From: Scenedesmus sp. PABB004
Taxonomy: Eukaryota
Length of the DNA stretch: 64,000 nucleotides
Reading direction: 5' to 3'
Assembly (NCBI GenBank): GCA_014905635.1
Contig: JABVCE010000010.1
Coordinates: forward strand, 186,001-250,000
The notes beneath the pieces were generated by a model. It did no database searches, was not told the DNA's origin, and was given only the letters and a program-made list of their open reading frames with translations. Below are positions 10,510 to 64,000 of the stretch, piece by piece (position 1 is the first letter of the stretch; every line of letters starts with the position of its first letter). Made by a program: the position numbers and the translations under genes.

Positions 10510-11854
10510 GGGGCGCGCGCGGCGCGCGCCGGCAAGTTTGCGTCGCGACTGCGCGCGCGCGCGCGTGTGCCTGGCCGCGGGCGCGTGGAGCGTTGCTTCT
10601 GCTGCTGCTGCTGCTGCTGCTGCGCGGCAGCTTTTATTCGCGCCGCCCGACGAGGCGCTGCAACAGTGCCCCTGCGCCGCCGCCCGCGCTGCCGCCGCCG
10701 CCGCCACCCGCGCCCGCGCCCGAGCCTCGCCGCCGGGGGTGCACACCAGGGCCCGCGCCGCCGCGCGGCAGTCGCTCCCACACGCGCGCGGTCAGCGCTC
10801 CGCGGTGGTGGTCGGCGGGCGCAGGGCGGACCGCCGCTCGGGCTGCCAGGCCTTGGACCAGCCCTCGACGCGCGCGCGCCGCCGCGCCGCGCACAGACCA
10901 GCTCGCGGCTCGGGCACGCTGCCCGCAAGCACGAACGCGTCCGGCGCGGCGAGCGCCAGCGCGCAGATTAGCGCCCCGCGCAGGGCGTCCATCACGCCGG
11001 CGCCCGCGCATTTCGGCCGGCCCGCAGTGCCCCGGGTGCGCCGCCGCGCGCGCGCGGCGCGTCGCTGCCGCGGCGCGCTCGCGGGCCCGGGGCTGCCCCG
11101 GGCCCCCGCGTTGCCGTCCGCGCCCGCCGCGCCCGCCGCCCTGCCTGACCCGGCCTCCCGCGTCGCAGGTGCCACGCACGGCGCCCGCGGCGGCCCTCGA
11201 GCCCGCGCAGCGCGCGTGGCCGAGCCACCACATGTCGGTCGCCACGGCGCACGCGATGTCGCCGCAGAGCACGTGGATGCAGAGCGCGCTCTTCGCGCCG
11301 TCGCCGGCGGCGCAGGCGCCGCGCAGCTGCGCGGCGCCGGGTGACGCGTCGCTGGCGGCGGCCCGCCACGCGCTGCACGCGCCCGGCGGCGGATACGGCG
11401 AGGACCAGAGCCCGCGGCGCAGCAGCTATAGCGTGCAGGTGCACCAGGCGGCGTGCGTCGCGGAGCCCGCCCCGCCGCAGCCGCGCAGCGCGAGCCAGCC
11501 ACATGCGCGTGCGTCGATGGACTGCGACGCGCACCAGCTCGCCGCGCTGCAGCAGCAGGTCGCGGCGCTGCAGGCGCGCCGCGCGGGGGGCCCGGCCCGG
11601 GCTTCCCCAGCGCTCCCTCCGGCGGCCCCTACGCGCGCCAGCAGCACCAGATCGCCGCGGCGGCGGCGGCCGCCGCCGCCGTGGCGGTGCAGAGCCGCCG
11701 CGCGAGCATCGACCGCGCGATGGCTGCGGCGCGGCGCAACAGCCTCGACGTCGCCGCCGCCGCCGTGGCGGCCCGGCGCGCGAGCATCGACGCCGCGCAC
11801 GCGCACGCCGCGGCGGTGGCGCGGCGCGAGAGCATGGACGCCGCGCACGCGCAC
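10465..11854 (+). repeat. Left arm of ~1.4-kb near-identical inverted duplication (partner 14228-15675)
   Basis: Begins inside the last EML exon (gtgatgcagcgcgacgag) and ends in the 48-bp repeat array. Matches the reverse complement of 14228-15675. Confidence 0.95.
11232..11854 (+). pseudogene. 5' part only (3'-truncated duplicate) of the gene at 12922-14907
   Basis: Same MSVATAHAMSPQSTWMQ start. Homology stops at 11854 and the frame runs into unrelated sequence (stop at 12076). Confidence 0.75.
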
Positions 11855-13812: not shown

Positions 13813-14907
13813 ACAGCGCCGCGGCGGCGTGCGCCGAGAGGGCGCTGCCGGCGCTGCGCGAGCTGCCGCCGCTGCCGGCGCGCTCGACCGAGCGCTCGCT
13901 GCGCAGCGGCGGGAACGGCAGGTCCACGCTGCGCCGCGCCGCGGCCCGGCCGCCGGCCAGCGCCGCGAGCTGCGCCTGCGTCAGCGCCGCGCCGTGGTGG
14001 TGGTGCGGCGCCGCGGCTGCCATGCTGCCCAGCATCGCGGCGTAGCCGGCCGTGAACCCCTCGTCGTAGCCGCCGGGCGGCCGCGGCGCCAGCGGCGGCT
14101 GCCGGTGCGGGTGGCCCCACGCGTCCCAGGGGCCGCCGCCCGGCGCGGGCGCGTGCCGCATCGCGTCGTGGCTGAGGCGCCGGCTCGTGCGCTCGTACGC
14201 GTAGCCGGCGCCGGCAACCGCCGCGGCGTGCGCGTGCGCGGCGTCCATGCTCTCGCGCCGCGCCACCGCCGCGGCGTGCGCGTGCGCGGCGTCGATGCTC
14301 TCGCGCCGCGCCACCGCCGCGGCGTGCGCGTGCGCGGCGTCGATGCTCGCGCGCCGGGCCGCCACGGCGGCGGCGGCGACGTCGAGGCTGTTGCGCCGCG
14401 CCGCAGCCATCGCGCGGTCGATGCTCGCGCGGCGGCTCTGCACCGCCACGGCGGCGGCGGCCGCCGCCGCGGCGATCTGGTGCTGCTGGCGCGCGTAGGG
14501 GCCGCCGGAGGGAGCGCTGGGGAAGCCCGGGCCGGGCCCCCCGCGCCGCCCGCGCTGCGGCGCGCCTGCAGCGCCGCGACCTGCTGCTGCAGCGCGGCGA
14601 GCTGGTGCGCATCGCAGTCCATCGACGCACGCGCATGTGGCTGGCTCGCGCTGCGCGGCTGCGGCGGGGCGGGCTCCGCGACGCACGCCGCCTGGTGCAC
14701 CTGCACGCTATAGCTGCTGCGCCGCGGGCGCTGGTCCTCTCCGTATCCGCCGCCGGGCGCGTGCAGCGCGTGGCGGGCCGCCGCCAGCGACGCGTCACCC
14801 GGCGCCGCGCAGCTGCGCGGCGCCTGCGCCGCCGGCGACGGCGCGAAGAGCGCGCTCTGCATCCACGTGCTCTGCGGCGACATCGCGTGCGCCGTGGCGA
14901 CCGACAT
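12922..14907 (-). CDS. Hypothetical RRxS-motif-rich protein with C-terminal coiled coil
   Basis: MSVATAHAMSPQ...; probable GC-AG intron after QVAALQ; three 16-aa repeats RR(A/E)S(I/M)DAAHAHAAAVA; C-terminal LHMLEAEVQQLLALQQKL and LKWQQLEALKQMHADL...HHGA*. One frame break near 13332-13336. Confidence 0.6.
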
Positions 14908-15675
14908 GTGGTGGCTCGGCCACGCGCGCTGCGCGGGCTCGAGGGGCCGCCGCGGGCGCCGTGCGTGGCACCTGCGACGCGGGAGGCCGGGTCAGGCAGG
15001 GCGGCGGGCGCGGCGGGCGCGGACGGCAACGCGGGGGCCCGGGGCAGCCCCGGGCCCGCGAGCGCGCCGCGGCAGCGACGCGCCGCGCGCGCGCGGCGGC
15101 GCACCCGGGGCACTGCGGGCCGGCCGAAATGCGCGGGCGCCGGCGTGATGGACGCCCTGCGCGGGGCGCTAATCTGCGCGCTGGCGCTCGCCGCGCCGGA
15201 CGCGTTCGTGCTTGCGGGCAGCGTGCCCGAGCCGCGAGCTGGTCTGTGCGCGGCGCGGCGGCGCGCGCGCGTCGAGGGCTGGTCCAAGGCCTGGCAGCCC
15301 GAGCGGCGGTCCGCCCTGCGCCCGCCGACCACCACCGCGGAGCGCTGACCGCGCGCGTGTGGGAGCGACTGCCGCGCGGCGGCGCGGGCCCTGGTGTGCA
15401 CCCCCGGCGGCGAGGCTCGGGCGCGGGCGCGGGTGGCGGCGGCGGCGGCAGCGCGGGCGGCGGCGCAGGGGCACTGTTGCAGCGCCTCGTCGGGCGGCGC
15501 GAATAAAAGCTGCCGCGCAGCAGCAGCAGCAGCAGCAGCAGAAGCAACGCTCCACGCGCCCGCGGCGAGGCACGCGCGCGCGCGCGCGCAGTCGCGACGC
15601 GAACTTGCCGGCGCGCGCCGCGCGCGCCCCTCAGTGCGCGCTGACCTGGCGCACGAGCTCGTCGCGCTGCATCAC
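14228..15675 (-). repeat. Right arm of ~1.4-kb inverted duplication; includes an orphan copy of the EML 3' end (15631-15675)
   Basis: 58 bp longer than the left arm, accounted for by one extra 48-bp unit, a 12-bp insertion, one fewer Ala codon and one extra homopolymer base. Confidence 0.95.
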
Positions 15676-52474: not shown

Positions 52475-52973
52475 TCAGTGCCCCTTCATCATGAGCTTCA
52501 GGTCGGCCGCCGGGTCCTCCGTGTTCGCCGGTTTGATCGCGAAGGCCTCCACCAGCTGGGTAACGGCCTCTGGGGTCAGGAAGCCCGGCAGGCGCGGGCC
52601 GAGCCTGACCGGGCGGCAGGGGAAGGGGGCGGTGTGGCGCGGGCGCGGGCGGCGGCGGGGCGGCACGGGCGCGGAGGGGCGCGGAGGGGCGCGGAGGGGC
52701 GCCGACGCCGCGGCGCGCACCTGATGTTGCGCACGCCCAGGTGGAGGAGCGTGAGGAGCACTGGCGGCGGGGGCGGGGGAGGCGAGGGGCGGGGCGCGTG
52801 AGCGCGGGGCGGCTTGTGTGCCGCCGCCGCTGCGGCGGGCGTGCGCCGCCGCGGGCGCACCCGCGACCGCCTTCTGCTCAAACCAGCTGATGTCCAGGCT
52901 GAGCGGCAGGCCTGCGGCGCGGGCGCGTCGGTCGGGGGCGCAGCCGTCGGGGACCGCGCGCGCCCCGCACACT

Positions 52974-53012
<39 letters not shown>

Positions 53013-53030
53013 CGGCGCGCGGGCGCGGGC

Positions 53031-53083
<53 letters not shown>

Positions 53084-53084
53084 C

Positions 53085-53169
<85 letters not shown>

Positions 53170-54608
53170 CGGGCGCGGGCGCGGGCGCGGGCGGCGCACC
53201 GTTGACGTCAGTGTTGAAGGCCTTGGCCAGCTCTGTGGCGACCACGAGCGCCGAGTACGCGTCGTTGCACTGCCCCATGTCCAGCAGGCGCGGCAGGCCG
53301 GTGCCGGGGAGCATGCCAAAGTCCTGGCAGCCACAGCGCGGCGGCGGCGGCGCGCGCGTCGGCCGGGCGCGCGCTGCGGCGCGGCAGGGCCCGCCGCCGC
53401 CGCCCCCCCCCCCCCACCTGGTTGAAGATGCGGAACTTGCCGCAGCCGAGCGTGAGGACCATCGTGTTTTGCGGCATCAGCCGCGCAAGACGGTCGTAGT
53501 ACTTGCGCTGCGGCTCGCTGCCGTCGCAGCTGCACGGCGGCGCGGGGGCGCGCGGACGCGGCGGCGGCGGCGGCACGGCGCGCGCGCGCGCGCGTGAGAC
53601 AGCCCGCGCGCGCGCGCGCGCTGGGAGGGCCGAGCCCAGCCCAGTCGCCTGGCTCCCGACTCTGAACAGGCACCAAGCATGACAAAACAACCAAGTCTGA
53701 CAGTCTGACAGTGCCACGCACCCGCCGATGACAAAGATGTGCTCCAGCTTGCCCGTCTTGACCGCGTCCACGACCTGCCCCGCCACGCCCAGCACCGCGT
53801 CGTGCCCAAACCCAACCGTCACGACGCCCAGCCTGTCGCGGCGCGCGCGAGGCGGGGCGCGGAGGGAGGGCAAGGAAGGGACGCGGCGGGGCGGCGGGGT
53901 GAGGGCCGGGGCCGGGATTCAGGGCCGGAACTGGCGGCTGGGCCGCGCGGGCGCTGCGCGGGCGCGGCGCGGGCGCCCCAGCGGCGCGCCTGCCCTCCTC
54001 CGCGCGCTCCTCCGCGACCTCGTCGGGGTCGGGCATGTTGTCGGGCGTGAAGCCCTCGGCCGACAGCGCGGCGGCGATGACGGGGCTGAAGTCCTTGGCG
54101 GTGCCGATGTGCGTCACGCCGGACAGGCCCGTCTGCGCGGCGCGCGGGGGCACGGCGCGCGGAGGCGTGAGCTGGGACGGCGGCAGGCGCGGCGTGGGGC
54201 GCGGGGCGCTGTGCGCTGCGCGCTGCGCGCTGCGCGCTGCGCGCTGCGCGCTGCGCGCTGCGCGCTGCGCGCTGCGCGCTGCGCGCTGCGTGCCGGCCGG
54301 GCGCGGGGCGCGCGGCGGCGCGCCTCGTTGGTGGTGAAGAGGCGGTCCTTGTAGGCCTTGGGCGGGTCCAGCACGCACTGCAGCGGCGGCGGCGGTCGCG
54401 GCAGGCGCGCGCGGGGCGTGGGCGGGTGGCGCGGCGCGGTGCGCGCGGCGCGGGAAAACAGACGCGCAGCCGCGCTGTTGCGCCCGCTCGCTGCGCCGCG
54501 CCGCACGTTGGTGGTGGCCAGCACGGCGCCGGGGAACTGGGAGAAGTCAATCTTCTGCCGGTACCACGCGCCGCCGAAGTGGCCTGCGCGGCGCGTGCGT
54601 GTTGTGTG

Positions 54609-54672
<64 letters not shown>

Positions 54673-55996
54673 TGTGTGTGTGTGCGCGCGTGCGTGCGTG
54701 TTGCTTGTGTGCGTGCGTGCGTGCGCGCGTGTGATGTGTGTGAGCGTGCTGTGAGCGCGCACAGCGGCGGGCACAGCGCGCACCGACGAGGTGCTTGTGC
54801 TTCTTCAGCTCGGGGTAGCCGTGCGCCGGCAGCATCTCGCCGTGGGTGTACACGTTGATGCCCTTTGACCCCACCGGAGGGGAGGCAGGGAGGGAGGGAA
54901 CAGGAGGAGCGGGACGGGGCGCGCGCGTTCGATGTGTGAGGAGGGGCAATGGCCGGGACGCGAGGGGGCGGGCGGGCCCCGGCGCCGGCGCGCGCGCACA
55001 GAGCCGCCGCGCTGCGCCGCCGCGCCGCGCACCTTGCCCGCCGTCTGCTCCAGCAGCAGGGACAGGTCGTGCATGTCGTGGCCCTGCGGCGCGGTCGCGG
55101 CGGCCGCGGCGGCGGCGGAGCTCAGGCCCGGCGCGCGGCACGGCGCGCCGCCGCCGCTCGCGAGCCGCTCCCGCGTCGGCTCCCCTCCCCCGCGTCCGTC
55201 TGCGCGCGGCGCGCGCGCGCGCACCGTGACCAGGATGGCCTTGCCCTCAACCGGGTCCAGCGACACAGGCGTCGGCGTGGGCGTGCCAAACCTGCGGCGC
55301 GCGGCGCGTCGGCGCAGCACCCGGCCGCTCGCGCGCGCGCTGCGCGGGCGCGGCCCGGTGCTAGTGGGTTGCGGCTGCGTGCCGCCGCATGCTCACCGCG
55401 CCTTGTGGCCGTCGGAGAGCATGGCCATCACGCCAAAGTTGGCCTCCCCGAGCGCCATGCACATGCCCAGCACCTGCGCAGAGCGTACGCGCCCTCAGCA
55501 CCGTCACGCGCGCGGCGGCGCGCGGCAGCGGAGCAGGCGGCGGCCGCGCGCGCGCGCGTTCCCCGCACCTCGCCCGGCGTCTTGGCGGCGGGGCTCGCGA
55601 GGAAGGACAGCGCGCGGTTGATGTAGGCGTAAGCGTCGCCCGACGTCTTGCCCAGCGCCTCTGCGGCGGGGGCGGGCACAGCGGCGGGGCGGCGACGTGG
55701 GCGGCGCGCTCCCGCAGCGGCCGCCGCCAGCAGCGCCGCCGGAGCCGCTGCGGCGGCAGCGGCGTGCGGGTCGCCGCGCCGCGTCGCGCGGTGGCGTGTG
55801 GGCGCCGCAGCGCGGGCGCACCGGCGTGGTGGGTGTAGGCGGCCATGCCCTTGAGGCCATAGGCCAGCATCTCCTGCAGGAGGGGGGGGGGGGGGGACGG
55901 GCGCAGGTGGGCAGCGGGGAGCGAGCCGACGGCGTCGCCGGTGCCCGGCGTCGGCGCCCAGGCGTGCGGGCTGCGCGCGCTGCGCGCGCGCGCGCG

Positions 55997-56027
<31 letters not shown>

Positions 56028-57470
56028 CCTGCAGCCCCGCCAGCGTCGCGCCGAGCGCCTCGCGGCGCGGCGCGACGCCCGCCGACTTGGCCTGGGCGCG
56101 CAGCAGCGCCATGTCGCCTGCGCCGGGGTAGTCGTACGTCTGCAGGGTAGCGGCGGGGGGGGGGGGGGGGCGGGTGAGCGCGCGGCGCCGCGGCGCCGCG
56201 GCAGGCCCCGCCGGGCGGCAGCGCGTCGCGCGGCCGCGGCTGCGCGCCATGGGGTGCGGCAGCTCGCCGCTCCAGCCGAGCTCGGCGGGGTCGGGGATGG
56301 CGGGGTCGGGCACGCCCTTGGCCTTGAGCGCGGCGCGCAGCTGCGCGCTGTAGTCGGCCGCCTGCTGCAGCATCTCGGTGAAGCGCGCCTCGTCAAAGTT
56401 GACTGCGGCGCGGGGAGAGCGGGGGCCGGGCGCCGCGGGTGGGCGCCGCGGGCGGGCGCCGCGGGCGGGCGCCGCGGGCCCGCAGCGCGGCGGCGGCGGC
56501 GCAGCGGCGCGCACCGTTGGTGAGCGTGGAGAAGGTGCTGCCAGTAATGAAGCTCTGGATGTGCTGCGGCACCGGCACGCCCGCCTCGTTGGCGAGGTGC
56601 GCCCAGCCGCCGAGGCCCTTGAGGCTGTAGATCAGCAGGTCCTGCAAGGACGGGGGCAGCGGGGGGCAGACGGGTCCGGCGCCCGCGGCCCAGGCGCCCA
56701 GGCGCGGGGGCGCGGCGCGCGCGGGCCGCGGCGGCGCCGCCGCCGCGCCTGCAGGCCCGCGACCTCGGGTGTCTTGCCGCACACGCCGACCGTGGTGCAG
56801 GCCTTGTTGTCCTGCGTCTGCTCGCACTGGTAGCAAAACATGGGCGACTCGGCGACCGCGGGCTGTGCCGCAAAGCCGCGCAGCGACGCGCCGGGCGACG
56901 CCTGCGCAGGCGAAGCAGTCGCGGCGGCCGCGGCGGCGCGCGAGTCAAGGCTGGTGCACGGCGCAAGCAAGCGCGGCGGCCGGCGGCGCGCGCGAGTCAG
57001 TCGGCGGCGCTGTGCTGGTGCGCTGCGCAAGCAAACGCGGCGGCCGGCGGCGCGCGCGAGGCGGCGGCGCTGTGCTGGTGCGCGGCGCGGCGCGGCACCC
57101 CCGGGGGCGTGCCACAGCCGCATGCGCATCGGGGCCCCGATCGGGCCCCGGCGCGCTGCCGCCGCGCAGGTGCCGCCGGCGCCGCTGCTGCTCTGGCCGC
57201 CGCCGGCCCGCAGGGGGGCGCGGCCCGATGCCGTCCGCGCCCCCAGAGCCGCACCATGACTCCCGCGCGCGACCCGGCGGGGCGCGGCGCCGCGTGCGAG
57301 CCCCGATCGCCGGCGGGGGCGGGCGCGCCGTTGCTGCCGATCGAGGAGATGCCGCGCGCGGGCGCCCGCAGGCCCAGGTTCTGCCGTGCGGCGGTCAGCG
57401 CGGGCGCGGCCGCGGCCAGGGCGGCGGCCAGCGGGCCGCACGCGCCGCTGGGGACGAGCGCGGGGAGCAT
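52475..57470 (-). CDS. HCP: Hybrid cluster protein (prismane; hydroxylamine/NO reductase) with N-terminal organellar targeting extension; ~20 exons
   Basis: MFCYQCEQT...CTTVGVCGK (ATG at 56841), [58 protein letters not shown] and LGPRLPGFL. Upstream ATG at 57470 (MLPALVPSG...RGISS); first-intron boundaries uncertain. Confidence 0.96.
52975..53195. repeat. (GCGCGG)n intronic tandem repeat in HCP
   Basis: Pure G/C hexamer array seen directly. Confidence 0.9.
54212..54290. repeat. (GCGCGCT)n intronic tandem repeat in HCP
   Basis: Heptamer array seen directly. Confidence 0.85.
54594..54742. repeat. (GCGT)n/(GT)n intronic microsatellite in HCP
   Basis: Seen directly. Confidence 0.85.
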
Positions 57471-57738
57471 GATGTCGGAGCGAGTCCCGGCGAGCGCGGG
57501 CGTGGCGCGGGCTGCGCGTGCGGCGTCGAGCGACCGGCGTGGCGCGAGTGAGGTGCCGGACGGGGCGCGACGCAGCTTTGAGGGCGCAGGCGCGCAGCCA
57601 AGGGTCCAGCACGGGACGACGACGTGCGGGGTCCACCCCACGCCGCGACGCGTGTGCTCGGCCAGGCGCAGCCCGCCACGTGTCGCCGCAGCGTGCGCGA
57701 CCCGCGGCTGGGTGACTCACCGCGCGGCGAGCAGCAGC
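57471..57738. promoter_or_regulatory. Putative bidirectional promoter between HCP and the b5/b5-reductase gene
   Basis: Only 268 bp separate the two divergent ATGs. No specific element identified. Confidence 0.55.
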
Positions 57739-60390
57739 ATGGCGGCGCTCGCGCTCGCGACCGCCGCCGCGCGGTGGGGCGGCGGCAGGTGCGGAGGGCG
57801 GGCCAGGGGCTCCGTGCGGTGGCGCGGGCGCGATCTGCCAGCGTGCGCTCACACCGCCCGCCGCCCCGCCAACCGCAGCGCGGCGGCGGCGCTGCTGCCG
57901 ACCGCGGGCGCGGCGCTCGCGCGCCTGGGCTGGCGCGGCGCCGCCGGCGGCGCCGCCGGCGGCGGCTCCCGCCAGCAGCGCCCGGCGGCGGCGGGCGGGC
58001 TCGGCGGCGGTCGGCGGCAGCTCGCGCCACTGGGCGGGCTCGCCGCCTGGGGCGCGCCCGCGGCTGCGCCCGCGCCGCTGCTGCAGCGGCGCTCGTGCGC
58101 CGCTGTGTCGAGCACCCCGTCCGCGGCCGCCGCGGCGCAGCCAGAGGCGGAGGCGACGGCGCAGGGCAGCAGCGCGGCGGAGCCGCCCGCCGCCGGGTTC
58201 GTCAACGCGGCCGCGCCGCCGCCGCCGCCGCCGCCGCCCGGCGCGGCCGCCGGCGCGCCCGCGGCCGCCGCCGGCGCGGCGGCGGCCGCCGCGGCCGCGG
58301 CGTCGTCGGTCGGCGGCGTGCTGCCCGGCGGCGCGCCGCTGGCCGAGTACACGATGCGCCAGGTCTCCAAGCATGCGAGCGACGATACCTGCTGGATCGT
58401 GGTCAACGGCAAGGTGGGGCCCGCCGCCGCCGCGGCCCGCGCCCTGCCGCCCACGCCCGCCGCGCCGCGCCGCCCGCGCCGTGCTGCTGCTGCTGACCGC
58501 GCCCCGGCCAACCCACCGCTCGCCCGCCGCCGCGCGCTGGATCAGGTCTATGACGTGACCAGCTACATCGACGACCACCCGGGCGGCAGCGAGTCGATCC
58601 TGCTCAACGCGGGCGTGGACTGCACCGAGGAGTTCATGGGCGTGCATTCGCAGGTGCGCGCGGGCGCCGGCGCGCCACCCCAGGGCGCTGGGGCGGCGCG
58701 CCGCCGGCGGCCACTGCGCGCCCGGCCCCGGCCCACGCGCGGCGCCCCGCGCGTGTGGCATTGGGTGTGTGCTGCGTGTGCTGCCTGCGCAGGAGGCCAA
58801 GGACCTGCTCAAAATGTTTGCCATCGGCACGGTGAAGCCCGGCGGCAAGAAGGCGGCGGCTCCGGCCGGCGCGGCGGCGGCGGCCGCCGCGGCGGCGCGC
58901 GCCGCCGCCGACCCCGGCGCGCCGCCCGTCGCGCTGGTGGACCCGCGGGAGCGCGTGTCGCTGCCGCTGGCGCTCAAGGCGCGGCTGAACCACGACACGT
59001 ACTTCATGCGCTTCGCGCTGCCCACCCCGGCGCACACGCTGGGGCTGCCGTGCGGGAAGCACGTCTTCCTCTGCGCAGGCGCGCGCCGCGCCGCGCAGCG
59101 CGGCGCGCAGCACGCGGCGCCGCCGCACACCGCGCAGCGCGGCGCACAGCGCGGCGCGCCGCGCGCGTGGCGCCCACGCGCGCCGCCCGCCCGCCTGCGC
59201 ATGCGCCGCGCGCCCGCAGACATCGGCGGCGAGGCCGTCGTGCGCGCGTACACGCCCGTGAGCGGCGACCGCAACGCGGGCGTGCTGGACCTCCTCATCA
59301 AGGTCTACTGGGGCTGCCCCCGCTTCCCAGAGGGCGGCAAGATGACGCAGCACCTCGCCGCGATGAAGGCGCGCGCGCGCGCGCACGCCCGCCGCGCGCG
59401 CCCGCCGCGGCGCCCGCTTGCAGCGTGCTGCGGCCCTGCATCTGCCGCCGCCGCCGCCGCGCGCGGCCGCCCCACGCCGGGCCGCGCTCGCGGCGCCGCT
59501 CGGTGGCGCGCAGGAGGGCGACACCATCGATGTCAAGGGCCCGTACGGCAAGTTCCACTACCAGGGCCGCGGCACCTACACGCTCAACAGGCACGCGGCG
59601 CCGCACTCGGCGCCGCCGTCGGCGCAGCCGGGCGGCCGCAGCAGTAGCGCAGCCGGGCGGCGGCGGCGGCGGCAACGCGCGCGGGGCGCGGCCGCTGCCG
59701 CCGCCGTGTCGCGCGCTCACGGCCGCTGCCGGTGCGCGCGGCCGCAGGGCGCCGGGCGTGGCGCGGTACCTGTCGATGGTCGCCGGCGGGAGCGGCGTGA
59801 CGCCGTGCTACGCGGTCGCGCGCGAGGCGCTGGCCGACCCCGCTGACGGCACGCGGCTGGCGCTCATCTACGCCAACAAGCACGAGGAGGACATCTGGCT
59901 CCGCGACGTGCGGCGCCGCTGCCCCGCAGGGCGCAGCGCGGGCGCAGCCGGCGCTGCCGCGCGCGCGCAGCGCGGCGAGCCGCGCCGGCCGACCGCCGCC
60001 GGCCCGCACACCGCGCCGCCGGCGCGCGCGCAGGAGCTGGACGCGCTCGCGGCGGCGCACCCGGACCGCTTCCACGTCTGGTACGTGGTGGAGGAGCCCG
60101 GCACGCCGCCGACCCCGTACGCAGGGCAGCAGCAGCCGGCGCAGCAGGCGGCGGCGGCGGCGGCGGCGGCACTGGGGCAGCAGCAGCAGCGGCCGGGCCC
60201 CTGGCAGTTCAGCCGCGGCTTCATCACGCCCGACATGATGGCGCAGCACCTGCTGCCGCCGCGGCCCGTCGGCGGCGACCCGGGCGGGGCGCTGGCGCTG
60301 ATGTGCGGCCCGCCGGGCATGCTCGAGGGTGTCGTCGTGCCCGGCTTCACCGCGCTGGGGTACGCGCCGGAGCAGATGGTCGTGTTTTGA
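57739..60390 (+). CDS. Cytochrome b5 + FAD/NAD(P)H cytochrome b5 reductase fusion, nitrate-reductase diaphorase-like, lacking Moco and dimerisation domains; 8 exons
   Basis: Exons 57739-57788, 57879-58413, 58546-58653, 58793-59078, 59220-59368, 59514-59590, 59748-59907, 60034-60390. Motifs CWIVVNGKVYDVT, HPGG, NAGVDCTEEFMGVHS, LGLPCGKHVFL, RAYTP, GGKMTQHL, KGPYG, AGGSGVTP, YANKHEEDI, CGPPGM. Confidence 0.92.
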   Translation: MAALALATAAARWGGGRCGGRARGSVRWRGRDLPACAHTARRPANRSAAAALLPTAGAALARLGWRGAAGGAAGGGSRQQRPAAAGGLGGGRRQLAPLGGLAAWGAPAAAPAPLLQRRSCAAVSSTPSAAAAAQPEAEATAQGSSAAEPPAAGFVNAAAPPPPPPPPGAAAGAPAAAAGAAAAAAAAASSVGGVLPGGAPLAEYTMRQVSKHASDDTCWIVVNGKVGPAAAAARALPPTPAAPRRPRRAAAADRAPANPPLARRRALDQVYDVTSYIDDHPGGSESILLNAGVDCTEEFMGVHSQVRAGAGAPPQGAGAARRRRPLRARPRPTRGAPRVWHWVCAACAACAGGQGPAQNVCHRHGEARRQEGGGSGRRGGGGRRGGARRRRPRRAARRAGGPAGARVAAAGAQGAAEPRHVLHALRAAHPGAHAGAAVREARLPLRRRAPRRAARRAARGAAAHRAARRTARRAARVAPTRAARPPAHAPRARRHRRRGRRARVHARERRPQRGRAGPPHQGLLGLPPLPRGRQDDAAPRRDEGARARARPPRAPAAAPACSVLRPCICRRRRRARPPHAGPRSRRRSVARRRATPSMSRARTASSTTRAAAPTRSTGTRRRTRRRRRRSRAAAAVAQPGGGGGGNARGARPLPPPCRALTAAAGARGRRAPGVARYLSMVAGGSGVTPCYAVAREALADPADGTRLALIYANKHEEDIWLRDVRRRCPAGRSAGAAGAAARAQRGEPRRPTAAGPHTAPPARAQELDALAAAHPDRFHVWYVVEEPGTPPTPYAGQQQPAQQAAAAAAAALGQQQQRPGPWQFSRGFITPDMMAQHLLPPRPVGGDPGGALALMCGPPGMLEGVVVPGFTALGYAPEQMVVF

Positions 60391-60557: not shown

Positions 60558-61842
60558 ATGGCGGGCGAGGCGTCGACGTCCAAGCCGGCGCTGTGGCAGC
60601 TGCGCAACAGCAAGGCGTGTTGCGGCGCTCAGCGGCCCGTCCTGCTCGCCCGGCGGCCCGCCGCGTGGGCCGAGCAGCAGCGCCCGCGCTCTGAGCACCT
60701 GTCTGCGCGCAGGCGCAGAAGGAGGGCGCGCGCTGCACCGTGTTCAGCCCGAGCGGCGAAACATATCGAGGGACCTGGCACGACCACAGGCGCCACGGTG
60801 CGCTGCCTGCCGCCTCCTGGGAGGCATGAAATGGGGATCGCCCAGCCGCTGGCAGCTTCGCGGGGCCGGGAAGCTCGCAGCGCGGCCGCGGCGCCGCGGC
60901 GGAGCTCGACTTGCTGCTGGCTCTGCGACTCGGCACGCCGGCCGCCGCCGCCGCCGCCACTGCAACCGCCAGGCAAGGGCGTGCTGACCTACACGAACGG
61001 CGACAAGTACGAGGGCGACTTTGCGGACGGCCGGCGGCACGGCGACGGCACGCTCTGGGTGCTGCGCGGCGGGCGATACGTGCTGCGATACGCGGGCGGC
61101 TGGGCGGACGACCTGCCGCACGTGAGCGTCGCGCATGGGGAAGGCGCCCGCGGGCGGCGGCGGCGACTGCGGGCTGCTGCACCGCGCCGCCGCGGCCGAG
61201 GCGCCGCCGATCGGTCGCGACGTGCAGGGCAGCGGGTCGTTCTTCGACGAGAGCGGCGGCGTGAGCTACGAGGGCGAGTTTGTGCGGGGGCTGCGCCACG
61301 GCCGCGGGCGCGGCGTGAGCGGCGGCGACGTCTATGAGGGCGCCTGGGCCGACGACATGCGGTGCGCAGACCTGGCCCGGCGAGCTCGCCACCAGCCTCG
61401 CGCGTCGCAGCCGCAGGCGGCACCCAACCGCGCCGCCGCGCCGCGCCAGCGCAGGCACGGCACGGGCACGCTGATGCTGGCCAATGGCGATCTGTACGAG
61501 GGCGGCTGGCAGGCGGACGCCAAGCACGGGCAGGGCACCTTCTTCCACTGCGCGAAGGGCGCGCGGTGCGCTGCGCTGTGCGCGCTGCGGCTGCTGTGCA
61601 CGTGCGCGCCGGCGACCCTGGCCGCCGCTGTCGCGCTGGCCCGTGGGGGGCCTGACGTCAGGCCCGTCGACGCTCCGTGCGCCTGCAGGTTCGACGGCGT
61701 CTGGCACGAGGGCACTGCCCGGTGCGGCGCGTACAGCGAGGTGCAGCCCGCGCCGCCAGGGGCGCGCGGCGCGCTGCCCACCTGCGAGCTCGCCGAGCCG
61801 GACGCGGTGCTGCAGGAGGCGCTGCAGGGCGCGGCGGGCTGA
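60558..61842 (+). CDS. MORN3: MORN-repeat protein, MORN3-like
   Basis: KAQKEGARCTVFSPSGETYRGTW, then repeated YEGxF/W...RHGxG units (YEGDFADGRRHGDG, YEGGWQADAKHGQG); ends LPTCELAEPDAVL. Confidence 0.75.
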
Positions 61843-62166: not shown

Positions 62167-63878
62167 TCACAGCTCCTCCTTGTCGTCGTCGCCGCCGACG
62201 ATGCCGCCAAATATGTCGCCCATGATGTCATCCAGGCTGAACTCGTCCTCCACCTCCACCGCCGCGTCCTGGCCGTCCCAGGGCTCGGTCGTCGCCACCG
62301 CGCCGAGCCGGCCGCCCGCCACGGGCGCGACCGGCTCGTAGCGCAGGCCCTTGACAAACTCCTTGAGCGCGGGCCCAGCAAACGCGCTGCGCGGGCGGGC
62401 GGGCGCGCGCGTGCGCGTGCGGCGGCGCAAGGGCATCGGGCGGCGGCGCGCGCGGCGCGCGCGGCGCGCGGGCAGAGCCAGCGGGCGCAGCCGGCACGTG
62501 CGCCCCGGCTGCAGCCGCCGCGGCGGTGTGTGTGGCGCGCGTGCGTGCCTGCGCATGGTGGAGTACTTGAGGTCGCCCGGCTTGAGCGCGACGAGCGCGG
62601 GGTAGCCAAAACCGCCGACGCCGAGGCTCTCCTCCAGCGCGGCCTGGCGCCCGCCCTCGGCCCACAGGTAGCTCCAGTTCCTGCGCGGCGCGCGCACCGA
62701 GGGCGGGTCGCGGCGGGTCGCGCGGGGCGGCGGCGGCGGGTCGCGCAGGGCCGTGCGAGGCGGCGCGGCGGCGCAGGCGCGGCGCAGACGCGGCGCAGAC
62801 GCGGCGCAGGCACGGGCGCAGGCGCGCCCCGCCACGCGCCTGTCCTTGTGGTCCGCGGCGAGCGCCTTGAGCGCGTCGAGGTAGGCCCGCCGCCCGTCGG
62901 CGCGCGAGTCGAGGATGTTGGGCAGGAAGGCGACAAAGCACAGCTGCGCGGGCGCCGTCTGCGGTGCGGCGGCCGCCGCCGCGGCGAGGCGTGGGCGCGC
63001 GCGCGGGCGCATGGCGCGGCGGCGCCGGGCCCGCGCGCGGCCGCGCGCCGCCCCACGCTGCGCCGCGCCGCCCCACGCCGCGCCGCGCCACGCTGCGCCG
63101 CACACCTTCTCCATGCCCGGGTCTGTCACGCCGAGGCACTCCGTCTCAAACACCGCCTCGTCGACCAGCTCCCGCACCTGGCCCCCGCCGGGCGGCAGGC
63201 GGCGCGCGGGCGGGCGGGGGCGTGATCAGAAGCCGGTCACCAGGTCGCGGGCGCCGCGAGCCGCGTGCCGCGCCGCGCCGCCGCACCTCGCGCGGCTTGG
63301 CGTTGGCGCTCCACAGCTTGGTCGCGGCGTCGACGATCGACCCGCTGTCGCGGCCGCCCTGGTAGTCGGCGGGGCGGGCCTTGTCGGCGCCAAAGGTCTT
63401 GATCGTCGGGTACCCCTGCACGCCGTACTGCCCGCACGTCGACGCGTGCGCGGTGCAGTCGACCGCACCGAGCTTGACCTTGCCGCGCAGCTGCTCCGCC
63501 GCGTCGATCCAGGCCGGCTTGAGCGCCTTGCAGTGCCCACACCAGGGCGCGTAGAACTGGGGGGGGGGAGCCAACGATGGGAGCAGGAGCAGGGGAGGCG
63601 GCGGGAGCGCGGTGAGAGGCAGGAGGGCGGACGGCGCCGGCGCCCGGCGGCAGGGCAGCCAGCGGCCGCCGCCGCCGGGCCCGCGGCGGGCCGCGCGCTC
63701 CCCCTGCCGCCGGCCGCGGCGGCCGCGCCCCCGCCGCGCCGCCGGCGCTGGGCGGAGCCCTGGCCCCCCCCTGCCCCCGCGCACCTCGACCAGCCATACG
63801 TCGTCGCTGTCGATGACCTCGTCGTTGAAGTTGCCGTCCGTGAGCGTGACGACGTCGGTGCCGCCGTAAAAGCCGTCC

Positions 63879-63927
<49 letters not shown>

Positions 63928-64000
63928 TCGCGCGGCCGCCGCCGCCGCCGCCGCTGGGCGGCTTCTCGCCGAGCTGCTTGAACGCGTACGCGCGCGCCTT
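62167..64000 (-). CDS. PDIA6: Protein disulfide isomerase, PDIA6/P5 type; 5' part lies outside the window
   Basis: WLVE|FYAPWCGHCKALKP, VQGYPTIK, GVGGFGYPALVAL, PWDGQD and C-terminal ER retention signal KEEL*. Confidence 0.92.

Follow-up and report, generated by a model that had tools for sequence, protein, structure and literature searches.

The 64,000-nucleotide stretch of Scenedesmus sp. PABB004 analyzed here (contig JABVCE010000010.1, positions 186,001 to 250,000; hereafter the window) carries, at 57739-60390 on the plus strand, a gene for a reductase with the cytochrome b5, FAD and NAD(P)H domains of nitrate reductase (NR) and without a domain for the molybdenum cofactor (Moco). A preliminary description, made from the letters of the DNA, had regarded it as a domain-loss duplicate of NR reused as a dedicated electron donor. 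The NR ancestry is very probably correct, and the donor role has gained a candidate acceptor, namely the product of a conserved head-to-head gene for a hybrid cluster protein (HCP), a neighbor absent from that description. The reading favored here, tentatively and with a little less than even confidence, is that the product would be an organellar, probably mitochondrial, NADH:HCP reductase and a convergent stand-in for bacterial Hcr. The features concerned are the following.

57739..60390, plus strand: Moco-less diaphorase gene, very probably NR-derived; 8 exons, 573 amino acids, comprising leader, cytochrome b5 and FAD/NAD(P)H parts
57739..58341, plus strand: leader, codons 1-171 (intron 57789-57878), Ala/Gly/Pro-rich; putative organellar presequence and spacer, the targeting judged from composition
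58342..58840, plus strand: cytochrome b5 domain, residues 172-247, with His206 and His229; introns 58414-58545 and 58654-58792
58841..58933, plus strand: Ala-rich hinge of ~31 residues, too short for an extra domain
58934..60390, plus strand: FAD- and NAD(P)H-binding domains, residues 279-573, with an acidic residue in WYVVE
Introns in the FAD/NAD(P)H part: GC-AG at 59079-59219, 59369-59513 and 59591-59747; GT-AG at 59908-60033
57471..57738, no strand: intergenic region, 268 bp between the divergent starts; putative shared promoter and 5' untranslated regions
52475..57470, minus strand: hybrid cluster protein (HCP/prismane) gene, with PF03063, the cubane motif Cx2Cx8Cx5C and a leader ending in RGFAA

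The window has a G+C content of ~80%, and the reductase is assembled from exons 57739-57788, 57879-58413, 58546-58653, 58793-59078, 59220-59368, 59514-59590, 59748-59907 and 60034-60390, which give a spliced coding sequence of 1722 nt, i.e., 573 amino acids and a stop. The earlier statement that the gene splices cleanly is true only if GC donors are allowed, since three of the seven introns are GC-AG and four are GT-AG. GC-AG introns are frequent at this locus, occurring also in the HCP gene region (52475-57470), whereas the genome's NR has GT-AG boundaries in every one of its 15 introns. Six of the seven exon junctions are gap-free in the alignment with the orthologue P0001, a 624-residue protein from an intronless 2181-base contig that we infer to be a transcript, and junction 1, in the leader, is unalignable. 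All motifs quoted in the preliminary description were located in the three plus-strand frames of 57739-60390, and Pfam profiles match the raw frames (Cyt-b5, E 2e-17; FAD_binding_6, E 2e-19; NAD_binding_1, E 1e-17). Both heme-ligand histidines are kept, as had been noted (H206 at 58576-58578, H229 at 58645-58647), and RAYTP, GGKM, GGSGxTP, YANK, CGPPGM and the terminal Phe are all intact.

The ends of the gene bear on the proposal that an NR fragment is decaying here, or that the gene is in fact longer, with Moco exons upstream or MORN repeats fused downstream. The public model P0008, which joins MORN repeats and keeps intron 7, speaks for such a gene, as does the requirement for three GC donors; against it stand the open frame, the retained cofactor residues, 78% identity over 334 columns to P0001, and the other orthologues with full-length ends (P0001, P0003, P0005, P0006 and P0007), all five of which stop at the same terminal Phe. 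Furthermore, the 573-residue protein gives no match to Moco and dimerization profiles made from 20 NRs, PF00174 has no match anywhere in the window, and the opposite-strand HCP gene takes up the DNA 5' of the reductase, which speaks against upstream Moco exons and bears out the earlier remark that no room is left for these domains. The ~170 low-complexity codons described before the b5 domain are likewise found, as 173 codons preceding the YTMRQV motif, of which 66 encode Ala. Third-position G+C (GC3) is 0.97 in the leader and 0.96 in the domains compared with 0.84 in the open reading frame that precedes the ATG; the leader thus reads as coding. A decaying or longer gene is very improbable. 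As alternative starts, the in-frame upstream ATGs at 57469/57472 were discarded on account of that lower GC3 and their overlap with the HCP start, and fusion to the MORN gene was discarded because orthologues end at the terminal Phe; the MORN-repeat gene occupies 60559-61842 on the plus strand, starting ~170 bp past the reductase stop, and the merger in P0008 is wrong.

PF00174 matches at two loci only in the genome assembly (40 Mb, 80 contigs). One is a complete NR of 865 amino acids on contig C5, with 15 introns; the separate full-length NR that the preliminary description proposed to look for is thus present, and the reductase is an extra gene rather than the alga's NR. The other, on contig C24, is read as a sulfite oxidase because its b5 domain precedes the Moco domain. 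FAD_binding_6 is found at four loci, i.e., the reductase gene, NR and two genes of the NADH-cytochrome b5 reductase (CBR) type on C1 and C24, and of 13 b5 matches genome-wide, none but those of the reductase gene and NR have an internal exon over profile positions 19/20-59/60. In a comparison set gathered by means of the orthologue profile, and classified by profiles made from NRs, NRs or NR fragments take the first 13 places among 142 non-orthologue b5 domains and the first 15 among 196 FAD/NAD domains. The reductase aligns to the genome's own NR with a score of 660, compared with 414 for its own CBR, 357 for P0302 and 419 for P0243; judging by motifs, we take P0302 to be NCB5OR-like and P0243, together with P0254, to be of the fungal type.

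In a FastTree analysis of 185 FAD/NAD domains, eight orthologues (support 99) join 14 NRs and three other fusions in a set of 25 rows (97), and a mixture-model tree of 58 FAD/NAD rows keeps this placement, with the enclosing nodes unstarred and the bootstrap unsettled. The concatenated b5 and FAD/NAD tree (38 rows, 336 columns), which leaves out the long-branched P0023, P0051 and P0184 and all CBRs, nests the orthologue clade (100/100) at 98/99 within 13 NRs, comprising five named from Chlamydomonadales, the genome's own, and seven labeled NR from the FAD/NAD FastTree. In the approximately unbiased (AU) test, the tree improves slightly (+3.4, p 0.56) when the clade is constrained to join the genome's own NR, a result that fits duplication within the order. 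Additionally, the intron in GK^VY (58414-58545) is identical in position and phase (0) to one in the genome's NR.

The opposing view is that the reductase descends from an ordinary b5/b5-reductase (b5R) fusion, NCB5OR-like or of the fungal type, its resemblance to NR being due to convergence or to an error of the tree. Several results weigh on that side and against NR ancestry: the AU test does not reject a tree in which the clade is forced to six ordinary b5/b5R fusions (p 0.084, lnL 34.9 lower), the b5-only tree does not settle the placement, the NR nodes of the mixture-model FAD/NAD tree are unstarred, only one of the six domain-region introns is exactly as in NR (one is 4 nt off and four differ), and FAD/NAD identity is 52% to the own NR and 48% to the own CBR. 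When the AU constraint uses a single fusion, that fusion is free to enter the NR clade, and the resulting p values (0.155 and 0.236) are therefore not discriminating. However, the concatenated support, the ranking of NRs at the top of both domain comparisons, the alignment scores, the shared internal b5 exon and the lack of space for an inter-domain insert all run counter to a non-NR origin, which is quite improbable. The phylogeny proposed earlier as a check thus sides with a domain-loss duplicate of NR in the concatenated analysis, not in the AU test or with b5 alone; with a full NR elsewhere, NRs as top matches and one identical intron, this origin is held with high confidence.

Orthologues are found in Raphidocelis subcapitata, Monoraphidium neglectum, M. 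minutum, Scenedesmus sp. NREL 46B-D3, Hariotina reticulata, Enallax (a fragment) and further contigs, and the four orthologue-bearing organisms whose classification was consulted belong to two families of Sphaeropleales, Scenedesmaceae and Selenastraceae. Between these families, the orthologues differ by 0.56-0.60 changes per site. No Tetradesmus orthologue turned up. The public labels conceal the gene: the Raphidocelis entry reads "nitrate reductase" and the Monoraphidium entry "cytochrome b5 reductase 2". Other Moco-less b5-reductase proteins with leaders are P0051, P0195 and P0023; the leaders of the first two look mitochondrial, and P0023 has an internal MGCGNS stretch. P0051 and P0023 lie near chlorophyte NRs on long branches outside the reductase clade, hinting at repeated independent reuse of the back half of NR. 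A metagenome scan confirmed six of 92 pattern matches, all distant (23-33% identity) and none an algal locus.

The divergent neighbor is recognized as an HCP through TIGR01703, against which P0085, whose best local alignment to a window frame is 100% identical, scores 583 bits (cut-off 360.8). Its cubane motif, Cx2Cx8Cx5C, equals that of Chlamydomonas HCP4 and is without the four-residue class II insertion; by the exact cubane spacings of the HCP classes, its sequence places it with the class I type. The class rule, i.e., a short cubane motif as opposed to the class II insertion, is that of PMC10210160. The pairing recurs in relatives: in Raphidocelis, the orthologue GBF96264.1 and the HCP GBF96263.1 have consecutive accessions, as do XP_013900866.1 and XP_013900867.1 in M. 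neglectum, and in Scenedesmus sp. NREL 46B-D3, the orthologue KAF6254264.1 and the HCP KAF6254265.1 are each on a 218,666-base contig. The first two HCPs are listed in Table 2 of PMC7412212 (GBF96263.1, XP013900867.1). Read from accession order, the orthologue and an HCP adjoin in three of three other testable genomes from two families, a count that leaves aside M. minutum, Hariotina and Enallax, represented by an orthologue or fragment only.

The leaders of the two proteins are both poor in acidic residues. That of the reductase contains nine Arg/Lys and no Asp/Glu before residue 106; the first Asp/Glu falls at 106, 108 and 92 in three spliced orthologue leaders, at 31 and 15 in two unspliced orthologue frames, and at residues 5-19 in the six of six NRs checked. 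The leader ends in R[SG]FAA in all five checked HCPs of the window-HCP type, and two orthologues have RGLHAS or RGFATS, all of which we take to be mitochondrial-type cleavage motifs; the window's own reductase leader has no clear motif of this kind. Organelle targeting of the reductase is plausible from the composition of its leader. The leader of P0001 shares a stretch of ten identical residues with the HCP P0130 (z 8.0; 0/20,000 shuffles), and the top four of 224 reductase-HCP leader pairs are P0001 with Scenedesmaceae HCPs, which suggests that the reductase leader may have been copied from HCP. A more specific scenario, in which an HCP-leader exon copy was fused to the back half of NR in Sphaeropleales and both genes came under one bidirectional promoter, is possible but doubtful. 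Between the HCP and reductase 5' ends, no exon-to-exon inverted copy stood out among the 25 longest of 220 GC-rich inverted pairs, and the 7-9-mers common to the intergenic region and the NR upstream region do not exceed chance expectation (an equally high value in 86-235 of 500 shuffles).

At the genome's second HCP gene (C4, ~963.3-968.7 kb), the 5' end including the first coding exon is present as an inverted copy of 1004 bp, 99.1% identical and 3.35 kb away (L015:803-1805 and L015:5156-6157), with a metallophosphoesterase-like gene between; this may be a recent duplication or an assembly artifact, and it indicates that a leader-copying event is possible. The 5' intronic region of the window's HCP gene contains degenerate direct repeats of ~47-60 bp with a spacing of 52-64 bp (56898-57093).

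In the favored reading, the 3' half of NR would have been duplicated in the ancestor of Scenedesmaceae and Selenastraceae, and the copy would have acquired an organellar, probably mitochondrial, leader head to head with the class I-type HCP gene. The imported reductase would oxidize NADH and pass the electrons from FAD to heme b5, which would deliver them singly to the cubane and hybrid cluster of HCP, and HCP would reduce NO to N2O or perform related nitrogen chemistry; the reductase would act like bacterial Hcr, with heme b5 replacing the [2Fe-2S] domain. As the reductase has no Moco, its heme needs an outside acceptor. An acidic residue at the YV[LV]E position is a mark of NADH use. It is present in all six full orthologue rows, which points to a preference for NADH. 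The electron path from NAD(P)H through FAD to heme is that of NR, and in Chlamydomonas, NOFNiR continues to receive electrons from an NR whose Moco part is defective while its FAD and heme are intact (PMC6473468). Class II hcp genes often adjoin hcr, while the donor of class I is described as unknown and coupling to NAD(P)H as needing a partner (PMC10210160). Moreover, the HCPs of Chlamydomonas respond to nitrate and darkness with an increase, and HCP2 is mitochondrial; whether algal HCP acts as an NO reductase is described as unsolved (PMC7412212).

A number of points weigh against an NADH:HCP reductase. The adjacency in relatives is given by accession numbers alone, without orientation or distance; the three genomes and the present one are related, thus representing roughly one deep conservation event; and the conservation of the pair is a raw count, no usable figure for background microsynteny having been found in PMC7354681, PMC7590803 or literature searches. 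The ten-residue leader motif occurs in one of five orthologue leaders and is absent from the window's own and three Selenastraceae-type leaders. The second HCP gene has no adjoining reductase. Chlamydomonadales have HCPs, and no orthologue was seen there among 84 matches in a weak search that scored the best 7999 candidates, so that HCPs may work with other donors. The heme of NR has a potential of about -120 to -170 mV. Class I HCP clusters lie at -250 to -150 mV, the cubane ~40 mV lower (PMC10210160), and heme-to-cubane transfer may therefore be uphill. Finally, ferredoxin has been proposed as the donor of the chloroplast HCP4 (PMC8003979).

Some of these points leave space for other roles. 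The reductase could be an organellar NR-derived diaphorase that has a nitrate/dark-responsive promoter in common with HCP and serves other acceptors (ARC/NOFNiR, truncated hemoglobin, NirK or cytochrome c), a rather unlikely reading, yet the main rival to an NADH:HCP reductase. The head-to-head layout would account for co-regulation without contact, the diaphorase half of NR feeds NOFNiR via heme and THB1 via FAD (PMC6473468), and the genome has two MOSC matches and one truncated-globin match. However, none of these matches is on the window's contig, NR and NOFNiR are described as cytosolic (PMC6473468) whereas the reductase has a leader, and the motif shared by P0001 and HCP is explained no better than by an NADH:HCP reductase. 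The searched portions of the supplements of PMC6913025 (nine files), PMC7161124 (12 of 17 files) and PMC5556983 (four files, the large table MOESM3 apart) contain no HCP rows that would bear on co-expression.

A general role for an organellar NR-derived b5/b5-reductase (desaturase, P450 or redox housekeeping), with the HCP adjacency an inherited order without function, is unlikely. It is consistent with the conservation of the pair being a raw count, the abundance of stand-alone b5-reductase proteins (48 rows so classed, some of them NR fragments) and the absence of promoter k-mers in common with NR. Nevertheless, it would have to accommodate a pair kept across two families at the divergence given above, and a coincidence in which the neighbor is linked to nitrate/NO and needs a reductase, and in which one orthologue matches its leader motif.

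No description of the gene or the pair was found in full-text literature searches, whose reach mostly excluded subscription papers. Stand-alone b5-reductase proteins being common, the architecture is not new; what appears new is the NR origin, the leader and the conserved linkage to HCP. If an NADH:HCP reductase is correct, it would give class I or eukaryotic HCPs their first named dedicated electron donor, would open a mitochondrial route from NADH to NO/N2O, and would mean that a eukaryote reinvented a bacterial operon partner out of a piece of NR. The pair offers a two-protein assay (NADH, diaphorase, HCP and NO) and has a bearing on N2O release from mass-cultured Scenedesmus- and Monoraphidium-type algae.

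Elsewhere in the window, 11196-11447 and ~14834-14943 encode the same peptides on opposite strands ~3.6 kb apart, possibly an inverted repeat forming the ends of a mobile element, and 62167-64000 on the minus strand holds an ordinary thioredoxin-domain (PDI-like) gene ending in DDDKEEL.

Among known systems, eukaryotic assimilatory NR (NIA1/NIT1 type) shares with the reductase the order b5-hinge-FAD-NAD(P)H, all cofactor motifs, the 52% FAD/NAD identity, the one identical intron and the tree position. In contrast to NR, the reductase occupies a separate locus, has neither a Moco nor a dimerization domain, so that no nitrate reduction is expected, and bears a long leader free of acidic residues where NRs have Asp/Glu early. 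Hcr, as in the hcp-hcr pair of Escherichia coli, similarly combines an FAD module oxidizing NAD(P)H with a one-electron carrier domain and is encoded beside hcp. Its layout places a [2Fe-2S] domain at the C-terminus, whereas the reductase has an N-terminal heme b5 and, very probably, eukaryotic NR ancestry, its HCP partner has class I spacing, and the genes are divergent rather than in an operon. P0001 and P0006 score 20.5 and 20.6 bits against NF007964, which we take to be Hcr (PRK10684 family), with a cut-off of 383; Fer2 has no Pfam match in the reductase, and an exon-wise, weak search of the genome gave no Hcr match above the cut-off. The reductase thus stands outside the Hcr family, though it may work like Hcr.

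NCB5OR (CYB5R4) and other b5/b5R fusions resemble the reductase in joining a soluble b5 and a reductase in one chain without Moco. NCB5OR carries a CS domain between b5 and reductase; the ~31-residue hinge here holds neither this nor another insert (no such Pfam match), and these fusions align with lower scores and lie outside the clade in the best trees. CBR/MCR1 shares the FAD/NAD fold and motifs, and solved CBR and NR fragments score alike against the reductase (E about 1e-65); however, the reductase has a fused b5 and no N-terminal membrane anchor, and the CBR-type genes on C1 and C24 are separate. The NR:NOFNiR and NR:THB1 systems of Chlamydomonas (PMC6473468) offer a functional parallel in that an FAD/heme chain serves an NO-cycle enzyme independently of Moco, but the donor there is a full-length cytosolic NR or a mutant, whereas here a separate gene, natural and conserved and with a leader of its own, would supply it.

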